Shown piece by piece: positions 7,014 to 24,796 of a stretch of 30,877 nucleotides of DNA. The stretch's first letter is position 1. Every line of letters begins with the position of its first letter. The translations under genes were made by a program, and so were the position numbers. Below the pieces are notes generated by a model. That model saw nothing but the letters and a program-made list of their open reading frames with translations. It was not told the DNA's origin and made no database searches. The stretch covers positions 1-30,877 of IMG/VR virus record IMGVR_UViG_2778261069_000012, one strand, 5' to 3'. Origin of the DNA: a virus. Its lineage: Duplodnaviria > Heunggongvirae > Uroviricota > Caudoviricetes.

Positions 7014-9017
7014 ATGCTTAAATTTCGCCGCGATCTTAACGGTTACGGTGGAGTTATTAATGAAGGGCATAACGATCAATACGAATTTGAAATTGCTTTC
7101 TCAAGTACACAGCCTTATCAGCGCCAATTTTGGGATGAGCAAAATCAAGAAATGGTGGTATTAGATGAAATTCTGGTACATACACCGGAAGCGGTTGATC
7201 TGTCTCGTCTGAATAATAACGCTCCGTTGCTGTTCAATCATAATTTCGATAATCACATTGGTGTTGTTTGTAACGCTCGAATCGATGCGGATAACGTAGG
7301 TCGTGCTCTGGTTAAATTCTCCAAGCATGGGACTTTGGCTAATGATATTCGTAATAAAGTCATTGAAGGTACGATGGAAAAAATTTCTGTCGGTTATGAC
7401 ATTAAAGAATATCACATCGATTATGCCAAAGGACAATTGATTGTTACTAAGTGGGCACCCTATGAACTCTCATTTGTCACCGTTCCCGCAGACGATACGG
7501 TCGGTTTAAATCGCTCTCTAAATACTATCACAGTTAATTTGGAGGCTAAACGCGATATGACTAAAGAACAAATCGAAGAAATCAAAAACGAAGAACCCGC
7601 TCAGGTTGAAGAAACTCCGGTAGAAGAAAATAAAGAACTGGAAGTTGAAGAAACTCAAGAGCGCCAAGTTGAAGAGAATAAAGAAAATGAAAATCTCGAA
7701 GACGGAAAAGACGCTGAACATCCTGAAAGTGTTGATGATGATAGTTCAACTGTTCGGGAAACAGAAGAAGTAAAAGAAGAACGTGAAGCCGCTCCGATTG
7801 AAGAAGAAAAAATCGAAGAAGTGGCTGAACGTTCCGAAGAAGACGAATTAGAAATCCGCGAGATCGCGCGGGAACTAAATATTGACGACGAAGAGTTAAA
7901 ACGCGCATTGGCAATTAAAGACATGACGCCGGAAGCATTCCGAACTAAGGCACTAAATAATCTTGTCAATGCTCAACGTAATAACGAACAACAAATTAAG
8001 GACTCTAAAATGGAAAAAACTTTTGACCTGAACAACGTAATTCGCTCTCTGGTAGATGGTGCTGCTCTGGGTGCTAACGAAGCTGAATATTCCGCAATGG
8101 CTGCTACTGCAACTATGCAGCGTGGTCGTGCTGCTCGTGGTGGCTCTGTATTCGTTCCGGCTGCTGCTATGCGTGCTGCTTCTGCTGGTAACACCAAAGC
8201 TGACCTGACCGCTATCACTGACGAAAAACTGATGACTGAATCCTACATCGAAATGCTGATGCCGGAATCTGTTCTGGGTCGTCTGGGTGTGACTGTTTAC
8301 AGTGGCTTGAACTCCCCGACCGCTATTCCAAAAATGACTAAATCCAGCGTTGACGCTTTCGGCTTCGTTGATGAAAACGGTGCTGCACCGGAAAGCAAAG
8401 CTGAATTTGCGAACGTGAAACTGTCTCCGAAAACTTTTGCTGGTGGCAACCCGATCAGCCGTCAGTCGCTGAAAACCGTTCCGGGCATCGCTACCCTGAT
8501 CACCGATCACATTAACAAATCTGTTCGGATCAAACTGGAACAACTGATTCTGTCTGATAAAGAAAATGCTCGTGGTCCGGCTGGTCTGGTTAAGCAACTG
8601 GTAGACGCTAGCCGCGTTACCAAGAAAGCTGCTTTCTCTTATAAAGATTTCCTCAAGGAGATTGCTCAGCTTACGGACGCTGGCGTTCCTGCTCAGGCGA
8701 TCAAGTTTGCAATGAGCGGTGCAACTGCTGCTGAACTGGAATCTACCCTGAAAGATAACGGCGTTTCCGGTTATATCATCGAAAACGGCAAACTGGCTGG
8801 TTACGAAGTAGTTACTTCTGGCGTTATCCCGGCAGACCACATCGTTCTGGGTGACTTCTCCGGTATTACTATCGGTGAGTGGGGAGGTCTGGAACTCGAC
8901 ATGGATCTAACTACATATAGGGATCGTGGTGCGGTAGTGCCTCGTATCTTTGTAGATTTGGACTACGTTGTAGCACAGCCGGAAGCCCTGAAAGTTCTTC
9001 ACATCTCCGCTGAATGA
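7014..9017 (+). CDS. prohead protease / scaffold-like linker / major capsid protein fusion (HK97 fold)
   Basis: 667 aa; N-terminal about 170 aa with LLFNHNFDNHIG motif typical of HK97-family prohead proteases; E/K-rich acidic linker (aa 185-300); C-terminal about 340 aa capsid-like; position after the portal gene. Confidence 0.78.
   Translation: MLKFRRDLNGYGGVINEGHNDQYEFEIAFSSTQPYQRQFWDEQNQEMVVLDEILVHTPEAVDLSRLNNNAPLLFNHNFDNHIGVVCNARIDADNVGRALVKFSKHGTLANDIRNKVIEGTMEKISVGYDIKEYHIDYAKGQLIVTKWAPYELSFVTVPADDTVGLNRSLNTITVNLEAKRDMTKEQIEEIKNEEPAQVEETPVEENKELEVEETQERQVEENKENENLEDGKDAEHPESVDDDSSTVRETEEVKEEREAAPIEEEKIEEVAERSEEDELEIREIARELNIDDEELKRALAIKDMTPEAFRTKALNNLVNAQRNNEQQIKDSKMEKTFDLNNVIRSLVDGAALGANEAEYSAMAATATMQRGRAARGGSVFVPAAAMRAASAGNTKADLTAITDEKLMTESYIEMLMPESVLGRLGVTVYSGLNSPTAIPKMTKSSVDAFGFVDENGAAPESKAEFANVKLSPKTFAGGNPISRQSLKTVPGIATLITDHINKSVRIKLEQLILSDKENARGPAGLVKQLVDASRVTKKAAFSYKDFLKEIAQLTDAGVPAQAIKFAMSGATAAELESTLKDNGVSGYIIENGKLAGYEVVTSGVIPADHIVLGDFSGITIGEWGGLELDMDLTTYRDRGAVVPRIFVDLDYVVAQPEALKVLHISAE
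7556..7900 (+). repeat. low-complexity acidic E/K/V-rich linker inside the capsid fusion ORF
   Basis: Reiterated GAAGAA / EE(x)K(E) motifs; generates spurious antisense ORFs. Confidence 0.6.
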
Positions 9018-10821: not shown

Positions 10822-13800
10822 ATGCAGTCGATCCAATTTAAACGAACAAATGTTTCTGGCAAAAAACCAACACCGGAACAATTACAGGTCGGTGAGGTAG
10901 CAATCAACCTTAAAGACCATGTTATTTTCACCAAAGACCGAGATCATGAAGTAGTTCAAATCTCTGTTTCTCCTGAAACTCACGCGGCACTAGAATCTAA
11001 AGTTGATGCTAACAAACAAGAATTGGATAGCACAATTGCAGTAAATGACCGCAATATTCACGCTAAAGTAGATGAAATTAAACAAACTACTGATGCAACC
11101 ATCGCAGCAAATCACGCAGAAATTAACAATAAAGTTGATGTAATTAAACGCGAAACCGACGCGACAATCGAGGCCAATAAAAATAAAGCTGCTTCCGATC
11201 TTGCTGGTGTTAAAGCTGAATTGTCGGATACCATCAACGCTAATAAAAATGCGGCTGCTGTAGCAACTCAGGAACTGGACACCCGCATCAATAAAAAAGT
11301 TGATGATATTAAATCCCGTACCGATGCAACCATCGTAAGCAATCACAAAGCAATCAATGACAAAGTTGATTTGATTAAGGCAGAAACTGACCGCACTATC
11401 GCAGCAAATCACGCCTATGCGGAAAATCAGTTAACTGACACCTACAATAACCTTACTGGTGTGATTGCAGCCAATAAGCAAGAGGCAGCGGATAACGTCG
11501 CAGCATTAACCCGTGATGTTGAAGCCAAAAATACAGCAATTCATAGCAAAGTTGACAATAACAAGTCTTACACTGATTCTGAATTGGCACGCTTAGAAAG
11601 CCGTATTGATGCAGCCGATGGATCAAGTGATGGTAAGTACATCAAAAAGCACGTAAACACTTGCACTGATGGCTATTTGCTGTCTAAGACCGCAAACCCT
11701 TTTGATGATCCGAGTGCTCTTAATCTTGATTACTTTGGTGCATTTCGCATGAATGACCTGGCGGGTCATATTGCAATGATCTTGCATGTTCCGCACCCAT
11801 CCGGCGTTAATCATGCTCGTGGTTTTGAGTTCACTTATGGGTCTAATCCGGTTCATACGGTAAGAACATACGGCTATGATGAATTGGGACATTTGGCATA
11901 TTCTCACCGCATGTATCATGAAGGTGATAAACCTACTCCGGCTGAAATTGGCGCATATTCGAAAGCAGAAATTGACCGCCTGTTCCAGAAGACGCTTAAT
12001 TTTGGGATCGAGGGCGGTTGGTTTAAACTCGGTAGTTTAACACTGCCACAGCAACACGGTCGCACGGCTAAGATTCGTTTAGTGGGTGGTAACGGTTATA
12101 ACGTCGGACAGAATGGACAAGCCAATATTATTGAACTGGTGATCCGTTGCGGCAACAATAGCCCGAAAGGTGTTGTATTCAATGCGTATTATACTATTTG
12201 GTATTATGAACAACATTTTTGTGCAATTCCTACCGATGGTGATAATTACGATCTTTACGCTTACTATGGTGCACATACAGGATTTGTTTTAGCAGAATAT
12301 CAAGTTTCTTCCGGTGGTGTTTCTTTAAACCTGTTGGATACTCCTGAATACCTGGGCGGTGAAAAACCTGTTGCAGATGAAATTTTTGATGCTCTTAACA
12401 TTTCATCGTTCAATAACTTTAGCAACCGTGGAACGTTAAATTTTGGTGGAAACCATCAAGGTCAATATGACATTGAGCATTTGAACGAACAACCGACAAA
12501 TGCTAAAAAGATGTTGCGTCGCTTCCGTAGTTCTGCTCCTGCCACTATCTGGCATGAGACAGTTGATGATAACGCATATCGTCTTGCTACTGGATACGAA
12601 GATACAAATCAGGAATTATTGCTGACAGCAACATCCGGGTTACATGTCAAGAAATTAACATTGGATGGCGGTGTTACTGGAAATTCTGGTATTGATATTC
12701 GTCGAGGACCAAACGAATCAAGTCATTTTAATTTCATGGATTATCGCACTGGACAAGATGTTCGTAATGGTTGGTTTGGTTTTGGTGATGGAACAACCAA
12801 AGATTTTATTTGGTGGAACGATAACGGTCAAAACTCTATAAACCTGATTGAAGATGGTGAATTGCATATTACTGGCGGTAAAGGCCAGAAAATTGTAATG
12901 AATAGCGAAGTTGCATTATCTGAAAATGCTCGTTTGGCTGTTAAAGGTGGCAATTATGGCTTAATTTTTAGAAATGATGGCGTTGGCTTCCATATTCTTA
13001 CCACAGATCTCGGTGATTCATTTGGACCGTGGAATACTCGTAGACCATTCAGCTATAATTTTGCGGACGGTGGATTATATTTAGGTGGTACTGAAACTGC
13101 TCGTTGTTTGCATCTGGGAATTGATGGTAGCACTCGTCTCGAAGACAACCTGTTCTTTAAAGCTGGTTCTCGTCAATCTATGGACTATATGGAACTCGTC
13201 CATTGGGGGGCAAGCAATACAGGTCGAAATAACGTTTTAAGTCTTCGTGACTCAAAAGGATTTTTCGCAGAATTTGAACGATTGGGTGATGATACCATTA
13301 AAAACACCTTCTTCGGGAAACTTAAAGTTAATCGTGGATCTGACGCAATCATCATGAATGCCGAAAGTGGCGATTCGTCTATATATTTGTTGGGTACTTG
13401 TGCTGATAATAACAACTGGTATATCGGTAAAGGTGGTGCTGATAATGGATTAGCGTTCTATAGCTATGCTACTAATGCTGCTATCAATATTACAAACGCG
13501 GGTGATATCGCGCTAAGTCCGAAAGGCGTCGAAATGACTCATGTCAATAACGTTCGGTTCTATGTTCATGGTGAACGTTGGACTGCTAGCCAATCTGGAG
13601 GCTGGGGCGATCAATGGGGATTAGAAGCGCCGATATTTGTCGATCATGGTTATGTTGGACCAGATAGCTATTATCCAATTATTAAAGGAAGAAGTTTAAT
13701 CACCAATCAAGGGTATACAACTGCCGTCGATTTTGGTATGCGTCGTGTTCCTCAAAATTGGGGGCAAGCTATTATTCGTGTTGGATCTGCGGAGGCATCG

Positions 13801-14232
13801 CCAGCGGCTGGTCATCCTCAAGCTGTATTCGAGTTCCATCATGATGGTACTTTCTATTCTCCTGGTAATGGTAACTTTAACGATGTTTATATTCGTTCCG
13901 ATGGTCGTCTGAAAATTAATGTTGAAGATTACGAAGAAAATGCGGTGGATAAGGTAAATAAACTCAAAGTTAAAACCTACGATAAAGTTAAATCTCTTAA
14001 TGACCGAGAAGTTATAGGTCATGAGATTGGTATTATCGCACAGGATTTACAAGAGGTATTACCGGAAGCTGTTAAAACCGCAAAAATTGGTGGTCTTGAT
14101 AACCCAGAAGAAATTTTAACAATTTCAAACTCCGCAGTGAACGCGCTTTTAATTAAAGCGGTCCAAGAAATGAGCGAAGAAAATAAACTTCTTCGTGAAC
14201 GTCTTGCTGCAATTGAAGCTAAATTAGGGTAA
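10822..14232 (+). CDS. tail fiber protein with C-terminal intramolecular chaperone (peptidase S74-like) domain
   Basis: 1136 aa; N-terminal KKPTPEQLQVGEVAINLKDHVIF fiber-type motif; four 22-aa KVDxIKxxTDATIxANH repeats; C-terminal GHEIGIIAQDLQEVLPEAV ... LLIKAVQEMSEENKLL typical of self-cleaving fiber chaperone domains. Confidence 0.85.
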   Translation: MQSIQFKRTNVSGKKPTPEQLQVGEVAINLKDHVIFTKDRDHEVVQISVSPETHAALESKVDANKQELDSTIAVNDRNIHAKVDEIKQTTDATIAANHAEINNKVDVIKRETDATIEANKNKAASDLAGVKAELSDTINANKNAAAVATQELDTRINKKVDDIKSRTDATIVSNHKAINDKVDLIKAETDRTIAANHAYAENQLTDTYNNLTGVIAANKQEAADNVAALTRDVEAKNTAIHSKVDNNKSYTDSELARLESRIDAADGSSDGKYIKKHVNTCTDGYLLSKTANPFDDPSALNLDYFGAFRMNDLAGHIAMILHVPHPSGVNHARGFEFTYGSNPVHTVRTYGYDELGHLAYSHRMYHEGDKPTPAEIGAYSKAEIDRLFQKTLNFGIEGGWFKLGSLTLPQQHGRTAKIRLVGGNGYNVGQNGQANIIELVIRCGNNSPKGVVFNAYYTIWYYEQHFCAIPTDGDNYDLYAYYGAHTGFVLAEYQVSSGGVSLNLLDTPEYLGGEKPVADEIFDALNISSFNNFSNRGTLNFGGNHQGQYDIEHLNEQPTNAKKMLRRFRSSAPATIWHETVDDNAYRLATGYEDTNQELLLTATSGLHVKKLTLDGGVTGNSGIDIRRGPNESSHFNFMDYRTGQDVRNGWFGFGDGTTKDFIWWNDNGQNSINLIEDGELHITGGKGQKIVMNSEVALSENARLAVKGGNYGLIFRNDGVGFHILTTDLGDSFGPWNTRRPFSYNFADGGLYLGGTETARCLHLGIDGSTRLEDNLFFKAGSRQSMDYMELVHWGASNTGRNNVLSLRDSKGFFAEFERLGDDTIKNTFFGKLKVNRGSDAIIMNAESGDSSIYLLGTCADNNNWYIGKGGADNGLAFYSYATNAAINITNAGDIALSPKGVEMTHVNNVRFYVHGERWTASQSGGWGDQWGLEAPIFVDHGYVGPDSYYPIIKGRSLITNQGYTTAVDFGMRRVPQNWGQAIIRVGSAEASPAAGHPQAVFEFHHDGTFYSPGNGNFNDVYIRSDGRLKINVEDYEENAVDKVNKLKVKTYDKVKSLNDREVIGHEIGIIAQDLQEVLPEAVKTAKIGGLDNPEEILTISNSAVNALLIKAVQEMSEENKLLRERLAAIEAKLG
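11065..11430 (+). repeat. in-frame tandem repeats (about 22-aa units) in the tail fiber shaft
   Basis: Four copies of KVD(E/V/D/L)IK(Q/R/S/A)xTD(A/R)TI(A/E/V)(A/S)N(H/K). Confidence 0.6.
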
Positions 14233-14238
14233 TTGGAA

Positions 14239-14258
14239 AGCGGGGAGAAATCTCCGCT
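14239..14258 (+). other. stem-loop with GAAA tetraloop between the fiber gene and the paralog cluster
   Basis: AGCGGGGA-GAAA-TCTCCGCT (8-bp stem, one G.U); no U-tract. Confidence 0.4.
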
Positions 14259-14270
14259 AAGGATTCTTAT

Positions 14271-14567
14271 ATGGGATATTGGGTAAGTAGTGAAATTAAT
14301 ACTAAAATCGATGCTTTAAAATGGCATGTATTTGATATTCCTAACGGCTATGGTACTGCTCGTGCTGGTGTCGCTGTAATGCGTCATAATGCTGGTGGTG
14401 GGTGGTCTGATGCACATATTAACGTAGATGGTTTGACCGTTGCTCGTCGTCGTGGTGGGACCAATTGGGGATCTACTATAAATTCGTTTGTTCCTGCTGG
14501 CTGCACCGTCTCCTTTGGTTTAGGGGGTGAAGGTGGTGTTGAATATTTTAAATTCATGGAGTTTTAA
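14271..14567 (+). CDS. small FDIPNGW-motif protein, paralog 1 of 3 (unknown function)
   Basis: 98 aa; SD AAGGA; shares WxxFDIPNG(W/Y), Gly-rich core and C-terminal TVSF ... YFKF with the two ORFs downstream. Confidence 0.65.
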   Translation: MGYWVSSEINTKIDALKWHVFDIPNGYGTARAGVAVMRHNAGGGWSDAHINVDGLTVARRRGGTNWGSTINSFVPAGCTVSFGLGGEGGVEYFKFMEF

Positions 14568-16476: not shown

Positions 16477-18906
16477 ATGACAAAACATATAGTAACAATA
16501 GAAGGGGATAATAAAGGGCTAAAGAGAAGTACCAATGAAGCCGCCGACCTTCTCGATAGTTTGTCTGAAAAGGCAAGTAATATTGATTTTGGTGGTGGCT
16601 TATCTGGTCTGACTGGATCTCTTCGTGGGATCGCTGGCTCTGCTGGTTTAGCTGCTGGTGGTATCGGCTTAGTTGCGACCGCAGTGGTTGCAGCCGCTAA
16701 AGCTGGCGCGGAATACGTTAAACAATATTCAGAAGTATCTAAGGCGACCGGACTCTCGATTGAATCCCTTCAAAGACTGGAAAAGGAATTTTCTGGTACT
16801 GGCCTAACAGTTGAAAAATTCGGTGATATCAACAAAGACACCTTAGATAAGATGGGTGATGCATGGGCTAACGGTGGTGGTATTGCTGATGACTTAGAAT
16901 CGGTTGGCCTTAAGTTAGAAAACTATGCTCACTTCATGACTGATCCGCAAGGTGGTATGAAAGCGGCGATCCAAGTGTTCTATGACATGAAGAAAGCCGG
17001 AAAATCAATGGCTGAAATCAAGTTCATGATGGAATCTTTAGCCAGTGATTCAAGCCATATGACCAGCCAGCTTGAGAAATATAATACTGCTCAAGAGGCG
17101 ATGATCGCTATTCAGAATCAATCTGTTAACGTCACCGAAGAAAACGCTAAAAAATATGATAAATTTTCTCAAAATATCAATAAGCTGGAAAATAACCTGA
17201 AAGGTGTCGGTATGACCATTTCTGGTCCGCTGGTTGATAGTTTAAACTGGTTATTTGACTGGTTTAATATTGATTGGGAAAAGAGTTCTCTATTCAGGGC
17301 ATTAGATCGACTGAATAAAGAAGGCAAGACCGCAACTGGCGGTATTCTTAACGCCAACCATAAAGACGCTCAAAAAATTATTGACAAGTACAATAAAGAA
17401 AAGCGTTGGAATAATCTGGCAGATTGGGAAAAGGCCGCGATCCGTGGTGCTGGTGTCGATCCTCGTACTGCTGGCTTTGATGTTGAAGGATTTAAGAAAC
17501 GTTTTGGTGATTCTTATAAGAAAAATGGCTCTCTGATTGTTGTCGATAACGGGGAACATCTAACCCGCAAGGCAGATCCTAACCGTGATTTGACTATACC
17601 AAATAAACCAGTAAGACCAGAATCATTGGGTAAGTCTGGTAATGAGAAGAAAGCCGAAGAAGAAGCACGCAAGAAAGCGGAAGAGGCAGCTAAAAAGGCT
17701 AAGGAAGCCGCAGAAAAAGCACAGAAAGCACGCGAGGATGCAATCAAGCGACTGAATGCACTTGATGTTAAATTGCAAGGGCAAGTTGCAGCGTCTATCA
17801 CTTCTCAAAATAGCCAGTTGCAAAACAGCTTAAAAGATGTGAACGACGCGTTAGCTCTGGGCTTAATCTCTCAGGAAGACGCAGCCGCGAAACGCCAGGC
17901 GCTAATCGATCAGAATACTGAAAACGTTTATAAAATGATGTTGGGTGCTGATCCGATTGATGCTCTGAATGCTTTAACACAATTGCAACAAATCAGGGAC
18001 AACGAGCTAGAAAGCCATAAACGGTTACTTGATGGTAAAGCTATCTCCTACGAAGAATATATGCGTCGTGTGAACGATACCGAGCAAAACTATTCTCAGA
18101 TTGAAAATTCTTTACAGGGAATGGATGGTTATAAAACCAATCAATTAACTAGTAGTTATGATTATCAAGACTCAAATAATCCGTTTGCTAAATTTAATGC
18201 AATCGATAAAGAGAAATCGGATGCTGAACAAGATTATAAGACCGATAAACTCAAGATTGATGGGATCACCGATCCGGCTAAACGGATGGAAGCATTAGAA
18301 AAACTCAATGAAAACCATCAAAAACGAATGGCTGCAATTGAGAAGAAATATGCTGATGCTCGCCAGTCAATAGCCGATGATATGTACGGCGGTTTTGCTG
18401 CTGCAATGACTCTCTTCGGGCAGGAAAACACTAAAGCTATGCAGATGGCTTTCAATGCTCATAAAGCATTCTCTATCGGACAAGCGACGGTGAACATGTG
18501 GACGGCTGCTACCGATGCATGGAACGATCCGACCAACGTCACCACAGGTCAAAAAATCGCGGCTGCTGCATTGGCTGTTTCTCAGAACATGGGGAACATC
18601 GCAAACATCAAGTCTACTAACGTTAGCGGTATGGCTCATGATGGTATTGATAACATCCCTCGTGAGGGTACATGGTTGCTTGATAAGGGTGAACGAGTAG
18701 TTGATCAGCGTACTAACGGTGATTTGAAAGACTTCCTTGCTGCTCAAAAATCAGGTGGTGGTAACTCTCAGCCGATTGAAGTTAATGCGCCTTTGAACAT
18801 TAACGGCAACGTTAATAGCTCAGACAAGATGGTCATGGATGCTATCAAACGTCACGCTAAGTTTGTTGCTCAGGCGATAGAAGACGTTCAGCGTCGTAAG
18901 ATGTAA
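16477..18906 (+). CDS. tail tape measure protein
   Basis: 809 aa; Gly/Ala-rich hydrophobic segment (GIAGSAGLAAGGIGLVATAVVAAAKAG); long coiled-coil-like regions (EKKAEEEARKKAEEAAKKAKEAAEKAQKARE); position between the chaperones and the tip genes; SD AAAGGGGTAA. Confidence 0.82.
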   Translation: MTKHIVTIEGDNKGLKRSTNEAADLLDSLSEKASNIDFGGGLSGLTGSLRGIAGSAGLAAGGIGLVATAVVAAAKAGAEYVKQYSEVSKATGLSIESLQRLEKEFSGTGLTVEKFGDINKDTLDKMGDAWANGGGIADDLESVGLKLENYAHFMTDPQGGMKAAIQVFYDMKKAGKSMAEIKFMMESLASDSSHMTSQLEKYNTAQEAMIAIQNQSVNVTEENAKKYDKFSQNINKLENNLKGVGMTISGPLVDSLNWLFDWFNIDWEKSSLFRALDRLNKEGKTATGGILNANHKDAQKIIDKYNKEKRWNNLADWEKAAIRGAGVDPRTAGFDVEGFKKRFGDSYKKNGSLIVVDNGEHLTRKADPNRDLTIPNKPVRPESLGKSGNEKKAEEEARKKAEEAAKKAKEAAEKAQKAREDAIKRLNALDVKLQGQVAASITSQNSQLQNSLKDVNDALALGLISQEDAAAKRQALIDQNTENVYKMMLGADPIDALNALTQLQQIRDNELESHKRLLDGKAISYEEYMRRVNDTEQNYSQIENSLQGMDGYKTNQLTSSYDYQDSNNPFAKFNAIDKEKSDAEQDYKTDKLKIDGITDPAKRMEALEKLNENHQKRMAAIEKKYADARQSIADDMYGGFAAAMTLFGQENTKAMQMAFNAHKAFSIGQATVNMWTAATDAWNDPTNVTTGQKIAAAALAVSQNMGNIANIKSTNVSGMAHDGIDNIPREGTWLLDKGERVVDQRTNGDLKDFLAAQKSGGGNSQPIEVNAPLNINGNVNSSDKMVMDAIKRHAKFVAQAIEDVQRRKM

Positions 18907-18912
18907 TTAAAA

Positions 18913-18955
18913 GCCCCCATAGTGATAAATAATCATAAAACTATGGGGGCTTTTC
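18913..18955 (+). terminator. long hairpin plus U4 after the tape measure gene; its 3' arm contains the SD of the next gene
   Basis: GCCCCCATAG ... CTATGGGGGC 10-bp stem with 18-nt loop, then TTTT and the ATG at 18957. Confidence 0.5.
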
Positions 18956-18956
18956 T

Positions 18957-19517
18957 ATGTTCAAATCCAAGAATATTAAAATCACAGATTTTACTCTTAA
19001 ATCAAAACAGCCTTTCTTCAAGGCGCAATCTATCTCCGGTAAGTTCCAGCGTCGCTTTACTGGCATCCATTTTTACGAAGCAGAATTTACCGCGAATTAC
19101 ATGGCTCAGGATATTAACGAAGTAAAAGAATTTGTAGCACGTCACCTTTTTGGTCGTCCTTTTAGTGTGCCACTGTCTTACTTTTCAAAATATACAGGCG
19201 ATGTACGCCAGATGGTTACGGCTGCTGCTGGTACTGCTCGCGGTGGGCGTAAGGTAAGACTCTCCAACTTCACCGGAACACTGAAAGCGGGAACTGTCAT
19301 CCAGTTTGAGAACCACAAGAAAATCTACACGATCACCGAAGACGTGAAATCAGGTGGTGAAATGAAACTCTTCCCTAACTTGCGTCAAAACGTCCTGGCT
19401 GGTGAGGTGATCAAGTATCAGAACGTAGAAGGTGAATTTGTTCTCAAAACTGAAAACATCGATTGGAAGATCGCCCAGATTGGCAAGATGAAATTCGAAT
19501 TAGTGGAGAATGTATAA
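18957..19517 (+). CDS. minor tail protein (lambda gpM-position, distal tail candidate)
   Basis: 186-aa ORF directly after the tape measure gene; assigned by position. Confidence 0.5.
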   Translation: MFKSKNIKITDFTLKSKQPFFKAQSISGKFQRRFTGIHFYEAEFTANYMAQDINEVKEFVARHLFGRPFSVPLSYFSKYTGDVRQMVTAAAGTARGGRKVRLSNFTGTLKAGTVIQFENHKKIYTITEDVKSGGEMKLFPNLRQNVLAGEVIKYQNVEGEFVLKTENIDWKIAQIGKMKFELVENV

Positions 19518-20170
19518 TGGCAACTATTCAGGAATCATTCAGCAAACTATGCACTAATCTGGACTTCATCGAGGTCTACAACGACCAGACAGGTCAGAAC
19601 GTGTCTAGATTGACGCTACCGCAGCTTTTTTCCACTGGATCGATGTTTCACATTATCGAAGTGATTACCGCGTCAGGGGACGTTCTACGGCTTACAGATG
19701 GGTACTTCGATTTGGACTATAACGGATTTACATATCTCGCAACGGGTGATTTTCTTCAAATCTCATCAAATACCGAAGAGAAGGAGATCAACAACAACGG
19801 GATTAACGTAACCGTTTCTAACGTTCGCGAGGAATACATTACCCTGATTCGAAACAAGCAATTCGATAAATCAGATGTGAAAATCGAAATGGTGTTCCTG
19901 AACCCTAACACGGGCAAGGTTGAAACAACTTACCCTGTTTTCCGTGGGGTAGTCGATTCCATCGGGATTAACATCGAACATGAAGATGATGAGTGTAAAA
20001 ACGAATCAGAATTTCAGCTTAATAGTATCTGGGAAGTTCTAGATAAAAACGCTCGTAGTCATGCCTCCGATGGTATCCACCGTTCCTATGTTGGAAACGA
20101 GAACGATCTATTCTTCTCAAGGACCGGGCGCTGGCAATCGGAAAGCAAGTGGCATTCATCGAAGAAATAA
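19517..20170 (+). CDS. minor tail protein (lambda gpL-position)
   Basis: Start at ATG 19517 (SD GGAGA; TAATG overlap with the previous stop) rather than the upstream extension at 19463; 217 aa, close to lambda gpL size. Confidence 0.5.
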   Translation: MATIQESFSKLCTNLDFIEVYNDQTGQNVSRLTLPQLFSTGSMFHIIEVITASGDVLRLTDGYFDLDYNGFTYLATGDFLQISSNTEEKEINNNGINVTVSNVREEYITLIRNKQFDKSDVKIEMVFLNPNTGKVETTYPVFRGVVDSIGINIEHEDDECKNESEFQLNSIWEVLDKNARSHASDGIHRSYVGNENDLFFSRTGRWQSESKWHSSKK

Positions 20171-20216
20171 TCCCTTCTCCCTAAGCCTAGTAAATAACAG
20201 CATGGAGGTATTCAAC

Positions 20217-20636
20217 ATGCTAAAAACTAGGCTTATCACCGATTACATCAATTCTTTAATAGGTCAGGAGTTCGTTCAAGGCGAGAATGATTGCAATATA
20301 ATTGCATGTAAGATCATCGATATTCTCGCTGGTACTGACCTATATAATTCTCTTTATAAAAAATATTCAACTAAAGAAGAAGGCTTGAAAATCTGCAAAG
20401 AATTAAGCGGATACACAAATATCCTTCAACCAATTAAGAAACATTTCAAATTAGTCACTGATGATTTACAGGACGGCGACTTACTGGTCACAGCCCACAA
20501 ATTAGGAAACCGCAAATATTATTCCGTAGTTCCTCATTATTCCGGTTATGGCCTCGTTGAAGAAGATGGTATCTGGATGACCATTCCTGTTTCAGACATT
20601 GACTATGAACAAGTTTATAGATTCGGGGGTGAATAA
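20217..20636 (+). CDS. tail tip assembly protein, gpK-like NlpC/P60-type cysteine peptidase domain
   Basis: Start at ATG 20217 (SD GGAGG 8 nt upstream); ENDC catalytic-Cys motif near the N-terminus with His residues downstream; stop overlaps the next start (TAATG). Confidence 0.5.
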   Translation: MLKTRLITDYINSLIGQEFVQGENDCNIIACKIIDILAGTDLYNSLYKKYSTKEEGLKICKELSGYTNILQPIKKHFKLVTDDLQDGDLLVTAHKLGNRKYYSVVPHYSGYGLVEEDGIWMTIPVSDIDYEQVYRFGGE

Positions 20637-23600
20637 TGGGATTTGAAATATTAGTAGGCGCGGTTATTGCTGGTGCGTCTGCTGGGATGGCTGCTGCTGC
20701 AACGTTTTCTGTTATGACCGCAGTCGCTATCGGTATGGCTGCTGGTGCAATGACCTTGATCGCTTCCACTGTAGGCGCACCAAAAACACCGAAAGTACAA
20801 AGCCCAGATAATGCGGTGACACTAGGAACATCAAACGATCCTAAGACAGTATTACCCGTTCTTTTTGGTACTACCCGCACGGGTGCAATCTGCGTTTACA
20901 AGGCAATTTCACAGCGTGAAAATAACAAGCTGGTACAAATTTTTGCTATTGCCGAAGGTGAGATCGATCACTTTAAAGCACTGCACATCGATAATAAAAA
21001 CGTTCTCATTAGCCAGAATATGACAATTCGTGATGGCATTCTCGATAAAGGAAACATTAAAGACGAATACCGCAAAGTTTTAGAAGTCGAGTTTCGCACG
21101 GGTAAAAATCCTAACACTGCATTGGATTTAGCTAAACATCATTTGGGCGCTGATTGGGATGATCGGTATCAGGGTAACGGCATTGCGACCATGTGTATTG
21201 TTTTACGTCGTGATGACAAATCTTTGGCTGCTGGTGTTGATATTCTCCAGCCTAATAGCCAGGTAGCGGTCGATGTTATGGGCTTAAAGATTCGTAACCT
21301 TGAAACCAATGCTATTGAGGCTAGCACTAACGGCGTGGACCAGATTTTCCATTATCTGACAAATACAAAGTATGGTCTTAGTGTACCGATTGAAAATATT
21401 AACGTTGATTCATTCCTGAAAGTGCGTAAACAAGTACGCCAGATGGATTTACATTCCAACGGTGCATGTGATCCGAACGCCAGCTTTAAAGAGAACTTAA
21501 CTAGCCTTATGCAGACTTTCGGCGGGGTGATGTTCGAATCCTTTGGACGTATTACGCTGAAACTGGATGCTCCTGATATTGTTAAGCATACCTTCAATGA
21601 AGACAATATCATGATGGGTAAGGTATCACTGAAAACAGGTGGCACTAACGGTTATTTCAATACCATTAACGCGATGTATCAAGAACCATCAATCGACTAT
21701 TCAGAGCAAATGCTACGTTATCCGGCTGATGCTGAAAACGATGCTACTATTCGTCAAGATGGTCGAATTATCGCTAAAGACATTGAATATCGTTTTGTTA
21801 AGTCTAAAGCCCAGATTGATAAACTAGCGAGTGTAGAACGAAATAAATCTCGTATCACTCAGGTTATCAGCTTTATGACTACTGACGCATTCACTGCCGA
21901 AGTGTGGGATGTTATTAGCGTTACCTATGATGAATTAAAACTGAATAATTCACTTTGGCGCATTACTGCAATTGATCGTTCTATTGATTCTGGTATTGCT
22001 GGGATGATGACTATCACCGCTACAGAATATAATTCTCAGGTTTATACTGACCTGAACTATGCGGCTAACCCAGATAACCGACCAAGTGGTTTACCGGATT
22101 CAATGACAGTACAGAAGCCTACTAATTTCAGAATTAAGGCAACTGGTGAAACCATCCACGGTAAAAACGTAACTTTGACATGGGATGCACCGGAAGATTT
22201 CAACCGCTACGGTTTCCAGATTGATTATCGTGTGAGTGGATCACCTAACTGGATTAAGCTGGGACAGACTTCACAGCAAATTTTCAATATCAATGCACTG
22301 GCAAAAGATCGCTCCTACGATTACCGCGTTTGTGCTTTCGGTATTATTGCTCGTTCCGAATGGGTGGAACTGGTTAACCAGAATCCTACTGTTACCTATG
22401 AATTGCCGACTCCGGTTATTCGAATCAAAAATCAGGGTAGCACGCCTGGTACTTTCGAAGGCAATGATCTGATTATCGAATGGGAAAATCAGCAACAATT
22501 AGATGTGATGATCAACGGTGAAGCTAACAAGTTTAGTGACCTGTTTGAAGCATACATTATCAAGGTAACTAACAAGGCTGGTAAGTCTATTCAGTACCGT
22601 ACCCGCGATCCTGAATCATGGACTTATACGCTTGATATGAACCAGTTTAACGGCCTTTCCCGTGAATTGACGGTAGAAGTATCAGTCAAGGGCTATAACA
22701 ACTCAGAGAGCGCCCCAGCGCGTTTAGTGGCTATCAACCCACAACATAAGCCGATGAAAGGTTTTAGTGCGCGTGGTGGCTTTAATACTGCGTTTGTTAG
22801 CTGGGCGGATGACGTAGAACATGACTATGCAGGGTCAATCATCCAGTATGCAACCGATAATACTTTCTCCGATGCAAGGGCAGTGACTACCAATAGCGTT
22901 AGTCATACTTCCTTTGATTTGGCTGACGGTGATTATTATATCCGTGGTGCTCACTATGATATTTTCGGTATGGATGATGCTGTTTGGTCTGAACCGTATT
23001 TCATGCAAATGAAATCTACCATTAGCTGGGACGATCAGGACAAAGAAGCACTGGAAGACCTGATTGGTTTACAAGATCGCTTAGATGAAACCATCGCGGA
23101 TGCTATTGCTCAAGCTGGCGCTAATGCCGATGCTAAGATTGATGCAATGCATAAACAGATTACTACCGAGACAGGGCAGACGGTCCAAGCCTCAGCCGAT
23201 ACTCTCAAGAGTCTGATTGCTACCAGTGAGCAAGCCAGCGCAACTAAGATTGATCAGGTTAAAGCTGAACTGAAAGGCGATATCACCAAAGAAGTTAGCG
23301 CATCCGCTACTACCCTGAAACAAGCAATTGCTACCAGTGAGGCAGCAAGCGCAAGTAAGATTGATCAAGTTCGGGTAGAAATGGATGGCAAGATTGCTGG
23401 TGTGAATCAGGAAGCAGATGTAAAAATCGATGCTTTGAAGGGAACCATTAACAGCAAATATAATCTGGCAGTTAATGCAGATGGTCGCGTGGCTGGTATT
23501 CATATGAGCGCAACCAATGATCCGGCAGAACCGACAAGAATCATCTTTACGGCTGATAAAATCGCGGTAGCTCCACAAGACGGATCAGAAGTTTGTCCGT

Positions 23601-24412
23601 TTGGTATCGAAGGTAACAAGGTTTATCTCGATAATGCCATGATTCGTAATGGGGCGATCGGAACAGCCCAGATCAACGATGCTAGCATCACCACGGCTAA
23701 AATCGGCACAGCCCAGATTAACGGTGCTCACATCCAGCACGCCCAGATCGGAACAGGTCATATTATTGATGGCTCTATCGATAATGCTAAAATTGGTAAC
23801 TATATCCAGTCTTATAACTGGAATGGTAACGATGGATGGTATATCGGCAAAGATGGCACTTGTCATTTTAGACACGCTAATATTCGTGGTCATTTGGTGG
23901 CTGATTCCGGCGAAATGAACAACGTAACGATTAATTCAAGTTGCCGCATTTTGGGTATGCTTGATGCTAATCAGGTGCGTGGTGACTTCGTGAAAGCTAT
24001 TGGTCGTCGATTCCCACATTGGGACGAAAACCCATCATTGGGCTATCCCGGTTATCCGCAAGGTACAATCACTGTTCGAATTGAAGATGATCACCCGTTT
24101 GATCGTCAGATTATCGTTCCGGCTATTAGCTTTGGTGGTCTTAATGCGCGTGAAGGCTCGAATAACAATACTTACTATGATAACTGTCGCTTGATTGTTC
24201 GCAAGAACGGTGCTGAATTATATAACCGTGCATATGGCAGACAGACTGGATTGTATAGTGCTGTTATTGATATGCCAGCCGGACACGGACCAGTTACGCT
24301 AACTTTTGAAGTAAGTTCAAGCGCAATCAACAACTGGACTCCCAGCACATGGATCAGCGATCTTTCTGTAATTGTTACTAAGAAAGCCGCTACGGGTATT
24401 TCTGTTTCTTAA
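20636..24412 (+). CDS. tail tip / host-specificity protein, gpJ-like, with an N-terminal gpI-C-like hydrophobic domain fused in frame
   Basis: 1258 aa; N-terminal about 95 aa (Gly/Ala-rich hydrophobic stretch, PKTPKVQSPDN, VLPVLFGTTRTGA) resembles the C-terminal half of lambda gpI; C-terminal about 150 aa (DDHPFDRQIIVP ... VIDMPAGHGPVTLTF ... ATGISVS) resembles the lambda gpJ C-terminus from memory. Confidence 0.88.
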   Translation: MGFEILVGAVIAGASAGMAAAATFSVMTAVAIGMAAGAMTLIASTVGAPKTPKVQSPDNAVTLGTSNDPKTVLPVLFGTTRTGAICVYKAISQRENNKLVQIFAIAEGEIDHFKALHIDNKNVLISQNMTIRDGILDKGNIKDEYRKVLEVEFRTGKNPNTALDLAKHHLGADWDDRYQGNGIATMCIVLRRDDKSLAAGVDILQPNSQVAVDVMGLKIRNLETNAIEASTNGVDQIFHYLTNTKYGLSVPIENINVDSFLKVRKQVRQMDLHSNGACDPNASFKENLTSLMQTFGGVMFESFGRITLKLDAPDIVKHTFNEDNIMMGKVSLKTGGTNGYFNTINAMYQEPSIDYSEQMLRYPADAENDATIRQDGRIIAKDIEYRFVKSKAQIDKLASVERNKSRITQVISFMTTDAFTAEVWDVISVTYDELKLNNSLWRITAIDRSIDSGIAGMMTITATEYNSQVYTDLNYAANPDNRPSGLPDSMTVQKPTNFRIKATGETIHGKNVTLTWDAPEDFNRYGFQIDYRVSGSPNWIKLGQTSQQIFNINALAKDRSYDYRVCAFGIIARSEWVELVNQNPTVTYELPTPVIRIKNQGSTPGTFEGNDLIIEWENQQQLDVMINGEANKFSDLFEAYIIKVTNKAGKSIQYRTRDPESWTYTLDMNQFNGLSRELTVEVSVKGYNNSESAPARLVAINPQHKPMKGFSARGGFNTAFVSWADDVEHDYAGSIIQYATDNTFSDARAVTTNSVSHTSFDLADGDYYIRGAHYDIFGMDDAVWSEPYFMQMKSTISWDDQDKEALEDLIGLQDRLDETIADAIAQAGANADAKIDAMHKQITTETGQTVQASADTLKSLIATSEQASATKIDQVKAELKGDITKEVSASATTLKQAIATSEAASASKIDQVRVEMDGKIAGVNQEADVKIDALKGTINSKYNLAVNADGRVAGIHMSATNDPAEPTRIIFTADKIAVAPQDGSEVCPFGIEGNKVYLDNAMIRNGAIGTAQINDASITTAKIGTAQINGAHIQHAQIGTGHIIDGSIDNAKIGNYIQSYNWNGNDGWYIGKDGTCHFRHANIRGHLVADSGEMNNVTINSSCRILGMLDANQVRGDFVKAIGRRFPHWDENPSLGYPGYPQGTITVRIEDDHPFDRQIIVPAISFGGLNAREGSNNNTYYDNCRLIVRKNGAELYNRAYGRQTGLYSAVIDMPAGHGPVTLTFEVSSSAINNWTPSTWISDLSVIVTKKAATGISVS
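23189..23410 (+). repeat. in-frame tandem duplication (about 111 nt / 37 aa) within the gpJ-like gene
   Basis: SADTLKSLIATSEQASATKIDQVKAELKG versus SATTLKQAIATSEAASASKIDQVRVEMDG; the nearby IGTAQIN motif also occurs twice. Confidence 0.6.
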
Positions 24413-24430
24413 AATTTAATTCTAATAATT

Positions 24431-24471
24431 AATCCCGCTTAATTCTTTTGAGTTAAGCGGGATTATTTTTA
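24431..24471 (+). terminator. rho-independent terminator after the gpJ-like gene
   Basis: AATCCCGCTTAA / TTAAGCGGGATT 12-bp stem, 10-nt loop, then ATTTTTAT. Confidence 0.8.
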
Positions 24472-24517
24472 TCTAAATAATTTTGCCATTAAACCATATA
24501 AAAATATCGGGGGCGTA

Positions 24518-24796
24518 ATGACTGAAATTATATATGGCGGTATCGGTGTTATCGCCTTAATTTGCGGTGGATTATGGAGACTTCACCGAAATCAATTAGC
24601 AACTGAAAATAGATTGTCGAAATTGGAATCCAGCGACGCATTGTTAAACCAGAAGTTTGAGACGATGCAGAATAACCATACTCAGATTGCTGAACGTGTT
24701 TACCAAATGGAACAAACACTACACGGTATAGAGAAGAAAGTGGTTGCGATGGACGCTAAGTTTGACCAAGTTCTCGACATACTCAAACAAAAATAA
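24518..24796 (+). CDS. membrane protein with N-terminal transmembrane segment and coiled-coil tail (holin-like or spanin-like candidate)
   Basis: 92 aa; hydrophobic IIYGGIGVIALICGGLW followed by a heptad-like region; position upstream of the endolysin. Confidence 0.5.
   Translation: MTEIIYGGIGVIALICGGLWRLHRNQLATENRLSKLESSDALLNQKFETMQNNHTQIAERVYQMEQTLHGIEKKVVAMDAKFDQVLDILKQK

Follow-up and report, generated by a model that had tools for sequence, protein, structure and literature searches.

The receptor-binding domain (RBD) at the end of the lambda tip protein gpJ is a leading model for viral receptor change. It is an Ig-like domain whose four bottom loops, L1 to L4, enter trimeric LamB at the extracellular side of its lumen; binding to LamB spreads the RBD trimer, and the change propagates up the fibre and opens the hub (PMC11101478). 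The receptor of lambda is LamB, and evolved lambda uses OmpF (PMC6646904). Phage phi21 also has LamB as its receptor, with one RBP mutation adding OmpC and further mutations adding OmpF (PMC11336670). OmpC is the receptor of phage 434. It is also used by the natural prophage tips A8 and 1A2 (PMC11338833). RBDs of the gpJ type have already been swapped into lambda-derived particles: the OmpC binders A8 and 1A2 serve there to give DNA delivery in the gut a new target. Only a handful of members of this domain family (PF12421) have been characterised, and every one of them binds a trimeric porin: LamB, OmpC or OmpF. Maddamsetti et al. showed that natural J homologues have four peaks of indels and entropy, at positions equivalent to lambda residues 1012, 1048-49, 1077-78 and 1107, and that these include OmpF gain-of-function sites (PMC6646904).

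Not all tip proteins with a related name belong with these. The LamB-, TolC- and NupG-specific GpJ tips of the Drexlerviridae are reported not to be homologous to the C-terminal domain of lambda and were set aside as comparators. Gifsy-1 J (OmpC, BtuB, OmpX), with a C-terminus reportedly only 18% identical to that of lambda, was also dropped.

A gpJ-type domain at the end of a prophage tail-tip protein

The stretch of DNA analysed here (the window, 30,877 nucleotides) is an E. coli prophage. Its tail-tip (central fibre) protein has 1258 amino acids and is translated from a 3777-nt ORF at nt 20636-24412 on the plus strand, with the stop codon at 24410-24412. The gene follows those for the tape-measure, the distal tail protein, a hub N-terminal domain and a DUF6950 protein. 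A 99% identical copy of the product carries the RefSeq name 'phage tail tip protein'.

The last ~140 residues of this protein are a genuine member of the lambda gpJ receptor-binding domain family. That its end resembles the C-terminal domain of lambda gpJ was the core of the original prediction, and phmmer, Pfam, BLASTP and the predicted fold all agree with it. The four motifs then quoted are present in the translation: DDHPFDRQIIVP at aa 1151-1162, YDNCRLIVRKNGAELY at 1181-1196, VIDMPAGHGPVTLTF at 1210-1224 and ATGISVS at 1252-1258. The boundaries given with them, nt 23950-24412, need some adjustment. The start misses the reading frame by one base (the first base of the codon is 23951, and translation from 23950 runs into stops), and the stretch similar to lambda begins slightly further upstream, at nt 23852, while the Pfam domain proper covers nt 24002-24409.

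In a BLASTP alignment with the lambda J sequence of a GenBank lambda record, aa 1073-1257 match lambda residues 952-1131 with 41% identity (E 3e-34). This stretch (nt 23852-24406, plus strand), in the final ~186 residues, is the only one with BLASTP similarity to lambda J. The RBD itself, as delimited by Pfam, by sequence matches in the PDB and by an AF2 model, lies at nt 24002-24409 on the same strand. Here PF12421 (Ig_GpJ_C) is matched by aa 1123-1258 at 122.1 bits (cut-off 26.2; E 2e-35), from profile position 2 to the last of 135. The Pfam title of this family is 'Tip attachment protein J, C-terminal receptor binding domain'. Its members sit at the extreme C-terminus, and in the window the fibre shaft family PF09327 (aa 931-1027) is followed by PF12421 running to the last residue. 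The framework motifs GDxVK, DDxxFDRQ, NG, DMPxGxG and KKxxxGI are all conserved, and each feature of PF12421 membership that is open to computation is present in this RBD.

A phmmer search of all PDB chains with the last 153 residues found only three distinct sequences, all of them gpJ and all aligned end to end. The best was 'A8 gpJ 713' (9wca/9wcb; E 3.3e-40, 53% identity over the RBD). Lambda 'Tip attachment protein J' was matched over query residues 2-152, with E 1.1e-26 for 8xcj/8xck and 3.9e-26 for 8iyk and others; identity to lambda gpJ over the RBD is 41-44%. The AF2 model of aa 1073-1258 has a mean pLDDT of 74; averaged by block, the values are about 77-96 over most of the RBD and low in the upstream strands, as expected for a segment that needs the trimer. 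This is a monomer model built on a shallow alignment dominated by one allele: when the RBD alone served as query in a word-indexed protein search, most of the matches were short pieces of one 434-like allele, so that the result told little about diversity and the alignment was shallow. With this model the first four Foldseek matches in the PDB were the closed A8 gpJ (9wca), closed lambda (8xck), A8 with OmpC (9wcb) and lambda with LamB (8xcj), at E values of about 1e-16 and TM scores of 0.64-0.68; the fifth match had E 4e-4. The domain is thus predicted to be an Ig-like beta-sandwich that matches the solved gpJ RBDs. Chance or low-complexity resemblance to lambda gpJ was rejected as having next to no probability, with E values of 1e-26 to 3e-40, a score of 122 bits and the fold search all against it.

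The closest solved relative is the OmpC-binding A8 gpJ, not lambda. The A8 RBD, solved closed (9wca) and open with OmpC of E. coli EDL933 (9wcb) and identical in sequence to that of the Stx1a-converting phage Stx1_1649, is the best match in both sequence and fold. It has in common with the window the GD(I/F)VK junction and the motifs DDxxFDRQ, DMPAGxG and KKxxxGIS, and the last of four variable loops (V4, described below) is nearly alike (ANNWTPTT in A8, INNWTPST in the window). In contrast, loops V1, V2 and V3 differ in sequence and length, and the A8 domain is carried on a lambda J body. The lambda RBD (8xcj, 8xck, 8iyk) belongs to the same Pfam family and has the same predicted fold, framework motifs and extreme C-terminal place after the fibre, but differs from the window by indels in V1, V2 and V4. 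Phage 434 has exactly the same RGDFVKA junction, with different loop sequences, and the loop sequences of phi21 differ as well.

Judged by sequence comparison, the family is narrow, and the window's RBD, here called allele A, is distinct within it. Identity to allele A is 63% for allele B of sister prophages, 55-57% for the vB_EcoS-640R1 / JLK-2012 type, 53% for both A8 (receptor OmpC) and phi21 (LamB), 50% for Stx1_499, 49% for 434 (OmpC) and 44% for lambda (LamB). The 243 matching phage records are all associated with Escherichia or Salmonella, and all are less than 60% identical. A library of 1.84 billion cluster representatives held only 117 matches at E<=1e-3, the best full-length one being 57% identical. 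The domain family is a known one, with a generic RefSeq annotation already in place; allele A is new to it and uncharacterised.

The body of the protein and the prophage that carries it

The original prediction called the whole protein J-like. This holds for position and architecture only; the first ~1070 residues have no BLASTP similarity to lambda J, with nothing significant before aa 1073. In Pfam, neither Phage-tail_3 (19.7 bits, cut-off 23) nor fn3 reached its cut-off; a phmmer search of the PDB with the body did not find the lambda J hub. The homologous N-terminal hub and FNIII body that would make this a full-length lambda J were not found. The body is of a different tail-tip lineage from lambda J, one that has acquired a lambda-type tip. 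Its architecture (hub, FN3-like, helical shaft, fibre and RBD) is nevertheless analogous.

The body groups with proteins of phage DCP80, a Vibrio phage, and Providencia and Salmonella prophages. The nearest phage protein is that of Escherichia phage DCP80, with about 39-40% identity and collinear to aa ~1119; Vibrio phage proteins come next, at about 22%. A fibre shaft segment at nt 23426-23716 (plus strand, aa 931-1027) belongs to PF09327, Phage_Tail_Tip (E 3.6e-18). A longer section of the shaft (aa 842-1016) has its matches in the T1 tail-tip fibre (9l9p_S, E 7.5e-19), a J-like gp24 and 7z4b_EA, the last deposited as a putative tail tip fiber protein.

The window holds genes for a gpA-type terminase, a lambda-family portal and an S78 protease-capsid fusion. 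Further genes are those for a large fibre, the tail tube, the tape-measure, the distal tail protein, the hub N-terminal domain, DUF6950 and the tip protein, and an M15 endolysin and a recombinase are also encoded. The structural and lysis modules are complete within the window. The large side fibre, at nt 10822-14232, is of the T-even type and shares 97% of its DNA sequence with a T4-like distal fibre; it may be the main host-range determinant of the prophage.

The element is known only as a prophage. A megablast search of a phage genome collection with the tip gene gave no match at the DNA level. The 99% identical copy of the tail-tip protein is found in the chromosome of porcine ETEC1703, in a prophage that encodes a serine recombinase and whose neighbours are ycdY and the csg locus. 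Among 5426 complete E. coli genomes the tail-tip gene is present in 55. In the genome H107 an IS1 is inserted in it.

Variable loops and candidate receptors

In the AF2 model, strands alternate with seven loops, and conservation of each loop was scored as the majority fraction in an alignment of eight non-redundant alleles, with strands and loops taken from the model. Loops b, d and f (EDDHPFD, NG and PAGHGP) are the most conserved (0.77-1.0, with 9 of 15 positions invariant). The least conserved are loops a, c, e and g, at aa 1125-1142, 1169-1178, 1201-1204 and 1230-1237, which score 0.41-0.64 and have just two invariant positions in 40. These four, here called V1 to V4, would be the counterparts of the receptor-facing loops L1 to L4, because alternate loops of a beta-sandwich share one face. 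Their predicted location on one face comes from the order of the strands and the agreement with published hotspots rather than from coordinates.

V1, a predicted receptor-contact loop (nt 24008-24061, plus strand, as are the other three), comprises aa 1125-1142, RFPHWDENPSLGYPGYPQ, and P1133 is the equivalent of lambda 1012. This loop (WDENPSLGYPGYPQG) is the longest among the alleles compared and has a unique insertion, without a characterised counterpart; half of its 18 positions vary within the allele-A group. V2 (nt 24140-24169; aa 1169-1178, LNAREGSNNN) has G1174 and S1175 as equivalents of lambda 1048 and 1049. None of its 10 positions is invariant across alleles, and six vary within the allele-A group. 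V3 (nt 24236-24247; aa 1201-1204, GRQT) has the lowest conservation of all segments, 0.41, and T1204 with the adjoining G1205 corresponds to lambda 1077 and 1078. V4 (nt 24323-24346; aa 1230-1237, AINNWTPS), with N1233 as the equivalent of lambda 1107, is without an invariant position among its eight across alleles; it is invariant within the allele-A group, and it is similar in A8, phi21 and Stx1_499.

The four hotspots of lambda therefore align with the window's RBD as one site or pair for each of V1 to V4, and the diverged residues of allele A sit in the loops that carry the specificity hotspots of lambda. Among close variants of allele A the amino-acid differences are concentrated in V1 and V2; in EC416, seven of nine lie in these two loops.

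By analogy with the lambda-LamB and A8-OmpC complexes, three copies of the RBD would form the distal tip of a trimeric fibre. V1 to V4, the loops at the far end, would reach into a trimeric outer-membrane porin through its extracellular mouths. Binding to the porin could then spread the RBD trimer, and a signal passed up the fibre would open the tail hub for DNA ejection. Since all characterised members of the family use trimeric porins, a porin is the likely receptor of allele A. The original prediction had likewise suggested a porin-type receptor in the outer membrane, with specificity depending on the diverged residues, and this fits what is known of the family.

The sequence relationships give less guidance as to which porin. 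The RBDs of phi21 and A8 are 81% identical and differ in native receptor (LamB and OmpC, respectively), and phi21 is as close to the window as A8 is, so the receptor was not named as OmpC from the A8 match. The porin cannot be named for allele A because relatives as alike as these differ and allele A is itself only 44-57% identical to the lambdoid alleles. As a rough guess, OmpC is the single most likely candidate, at somewhat less than an even chance; LamB stands well behind it, level with something other than these porins, and OmpF has a slim chance.

The same low identity, which holds for every lambdoid allele compared including all of those with a known receptor, can be read as pointing away from the known porins altogether. 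Allele A could be a true gpJ-type RBD with a receptor other than LamB, OmpC or OmpF, such as a minor or alternative porin, a monomeric outer-membrane protein (e.g., a TonB-dependent transporter) or a component of the LPS core. The unique insertion in V1 would fit such a receptor, and a few point mutations can shift receptor choice in the gpJ RBD scaffold. Other GpJ-type central fibres do use TolC or NupG, by means of C-terminal domains that are not homologous to that of lambda. However, all characterised PF12421 domains bind a trimeric porin of 16 or 18 strands, an RBD trimer with three-fold symmetry and loops that enter three barrels suits trimeric porins, and allele A retains both the framework and the conserved top loops. 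A receptor of this kind, with all three types of candidate taken jointly, is considered rather improbable. The reading that we favour with good confidence is that nt 24002-24409 encode the gpJ-family RBD of the prophage's central tail fibre, present as the allele-A cassette and predicted to dock on a porin.

The RBD as an exchangeable cassette

Comparison of near-identical prophages shows that the RBD is a swappable cassette. The junction between fibre and RBD is marked by the motif G-D-F-V (nt 23981-23992, plus strand, aa 1116-1119), and all lambdoid alleles have RGDFVK, EGDIVK or VGDIVK just before the RBD. Allele B is carried by E. coli FDAARGOS_946, PK8568, OW848980 and Z0117, in which the body of the protein is 95-99% identical to that of the window. 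A comparison of sister prophages gave 98% identity for the body against 63% for the RBD. The breakpoints between the two alleles enclose a DNA cassette at nt 23997-24394 (plus strand), where identity falls to ~60% between flanks that are 96-100% identical. Over nt 23850-24520 there are 168 mismatches or gaps, and all but three are inside this block; the exceptions are at 23863 upstream and at 24456 and 24495 downstream. In 90-nt windows, identity drops to 0.50-0.63 within the block, against 0.96-1.0 to either side of it. The allele B RBD is 63-65% identical to allele A and 10 residues shorter, owing to deletions in V1, V2 and V3. Recombination has probably moved the cassette between two conserved sites, the GDFV junction and the KKxxxGIS tail at the C-terminus.

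A database search with the whole protein showed at least 10 PF12421 alleles on the E. coli body. Several of these are close variants of allele A, which differ from it mainly in loops V1 and V2. One further PF12421 allele occurs in Providencia sp. JUb39, in a protein that is 73% identical overall. Elsewhere the residues beyond this junction, ~135-150 in number, are unrelated. Homologues in Salmonella enterica prophages have a body that is 73% identical, and their C-terminal ~150 residues after 'FVGDIAV' are unrelated and not PF12421. In DCP80 the C-terminus is unrelated directly after 'IEGDIV', and its 141 C-terminal residues had no match in Pfam. It is thus at the GD(I/F)V motif that fibre and tip are naturally joined, since the DCP80 and Salmonella proteins are collinear up to it and unrelated beyond it.

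An arrangement of the Drexlerviridae type, where GpJ is accompanied by a separate RBP in a hypervariable locus downstream, was not found in the window. Across prophages that differ in RBD allele, the four ORFs downstream keep 91-100% identity, and the downstream DNA is 96% identical; a co-varying receptor-binding locus of that kind is thus not evident.

Estimates of dN/dS are 0.09-0.13 for the RBD and 0.06-0.07 for the body, with dS higher in the RBD. Values this low indicate that the tail-tip gene is kept by purifying selection. Positive selection on the RBD as a whole domain was rejected because its dN/dS is only 0.09-0.13. The low ratios also suggest that the alleles have diverged through the import of diverged cassettes and not by adaptive substitution in place.

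The selection estimates also bear on whether the domain works at all. The RBD might be a relic in a defective prophage, as would fit the absence of DNA matches to such a phage from the phage genome collection and the IS1 in the tail-tip gene of H107, or the tip might be merely structural, with specificity residing wholly in the T-even-type side fibre, a large protein whose DNA is 97% identical to that of a T4-like distal fibre. We regard both as very improbable. The 1258-codon ORF is unbroken, dN/dS stays within 0.02-0.13 over body and RBD, and the window has complete structural and lysis modules. Moreover, the RBD has many distinct alleles whose recombination boundaries are sharp, and this diversity would be lost if receptor choice were not under selection.

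With the RBD read as a functional tip, the locus adds to the family a natural allele with close and distant sister alleles, sharp recombination boundaries and a body unrelated in sequence to lambda J. The presence of the sister alleles on a body that is not that of lambda suggests that the cassette works across tail lineages, with GD(I/F)V as a natural splice point. Receptor-prediction datasets and the design of chimeras can both profit from the locus; it leaves the understanding of how such domains work unchanged and will not surprise a specialist. If allele A with its long V1 binds outside LamB, OmpC and OmpF, the 10 or more natural alleles would form a graded specificity series. Such a series would extend the receptor repertoire of lambda-type RBDs and could supply cassettes for engineered lambda delivery particles.

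Carriage of the tip gene and carriage of allele A are not the same. At the DNA level the RBD of the window is found in only 19 of the 55 genomes with the tip gene; in the remainder, the DNA match ends 46-69 nt into the region.

Head and fibre genes

The prohead protease and the major capsid protein are joined in a single plus-strand ORF of 667 aa (window 7014-9017). This is a protease-capsid fusion, with the prohead protease domain (Peptidase_S78) at aa 40-162 and the HK97-type major capsid domain at aa 409-663.

A large fibre gene (1136 aa, plus strand) is found at 10822-14232, continuing to about 15194, and has the head genes on one side and the tail tube gene on the other. In Pfam its product has Gp34_trimer and a C-terminal Peptidase_S74 chaperone domain; a match to gp37_trimer is weak and sub-threshold. 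Nucleotides 12343-14538 of the window match the virulent T4-like phage KFS-EC at 97% DNA identity, where the counterpart is the long tail fibre distal subunit plus the next ORF, and the same stretch is 80-87% identical in DNA to many other T-even phages. In this region (10822-14232), fibre tips look to have been recently exchanged between a temperate prophage with a non-contractile tail and lytic myoviruses.

The tail-tip protein and its homologues

The tail-tip protein (20636-24412, plus strand, 1258 aa) begins MGFEILVGAVIAGASAGMAAAATFSVMTAVAIGMAAGAMTLIAST..., and its N-terminus is a long Gly/Ala-rich hydrophobic stretch. In contrast, the N-terminus of lambda J is polar. This N-terminal segment (aa 1-50, window 20636-20790) might be membrane-active or serve to plug the tube. 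The nearest phage homologue of this siphovirus-type protein occurs in Escherichia phage DCP80 (PQ671644.1), where the hydrophobic stretch is kept from about aa 29 and Pfam gives no hit in the C-terminal 141 aa. The DCP80 record is 141 kb long and is labelled Straboviridae/Tevenvirinae/Gaprivervirus, and neighbours of its tail-tip gene are tape-measure-sized; there may be reason to doubt either this taxonomic assignment or the assembly.

Homologues from Salmonella enterica (P0241-P0263) have a body 73% identical to that of the window protein. After the same GDI(A)V junction, their C-terminal domain of ~150 aa differs from the window's and carries no Pfam annotation. Presumably this domain has another receptor-binding fold and recognises another receptor.

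Nuclease genes and an insertion element in related prophages

In the related E. coli prophages of ETEC1703, FDAARGOS_946 and PK8568, a gene with a NUMOD3 domain (homing-endonuclease-like; 18765-19535 in locus L002) sits between the hub gene and DUF6950. The corresponding gap in the window is only about 47 nt (about 20170-20217). The gene is a presence/absence polymorphism within the tail module.

In E. coli 14EC017 (NZ_CP024134.1, 2562448-2567001), an IS1A element splits the tip gene, an example of prophage decay in one lineage. Despite this interruption, the segment encoding the receptor-binding domain is 100% identical to that of the window.

A GIY-YIG nuclease gene was also observed 3' of the lysis genes in ETEC1703 and OW848980.
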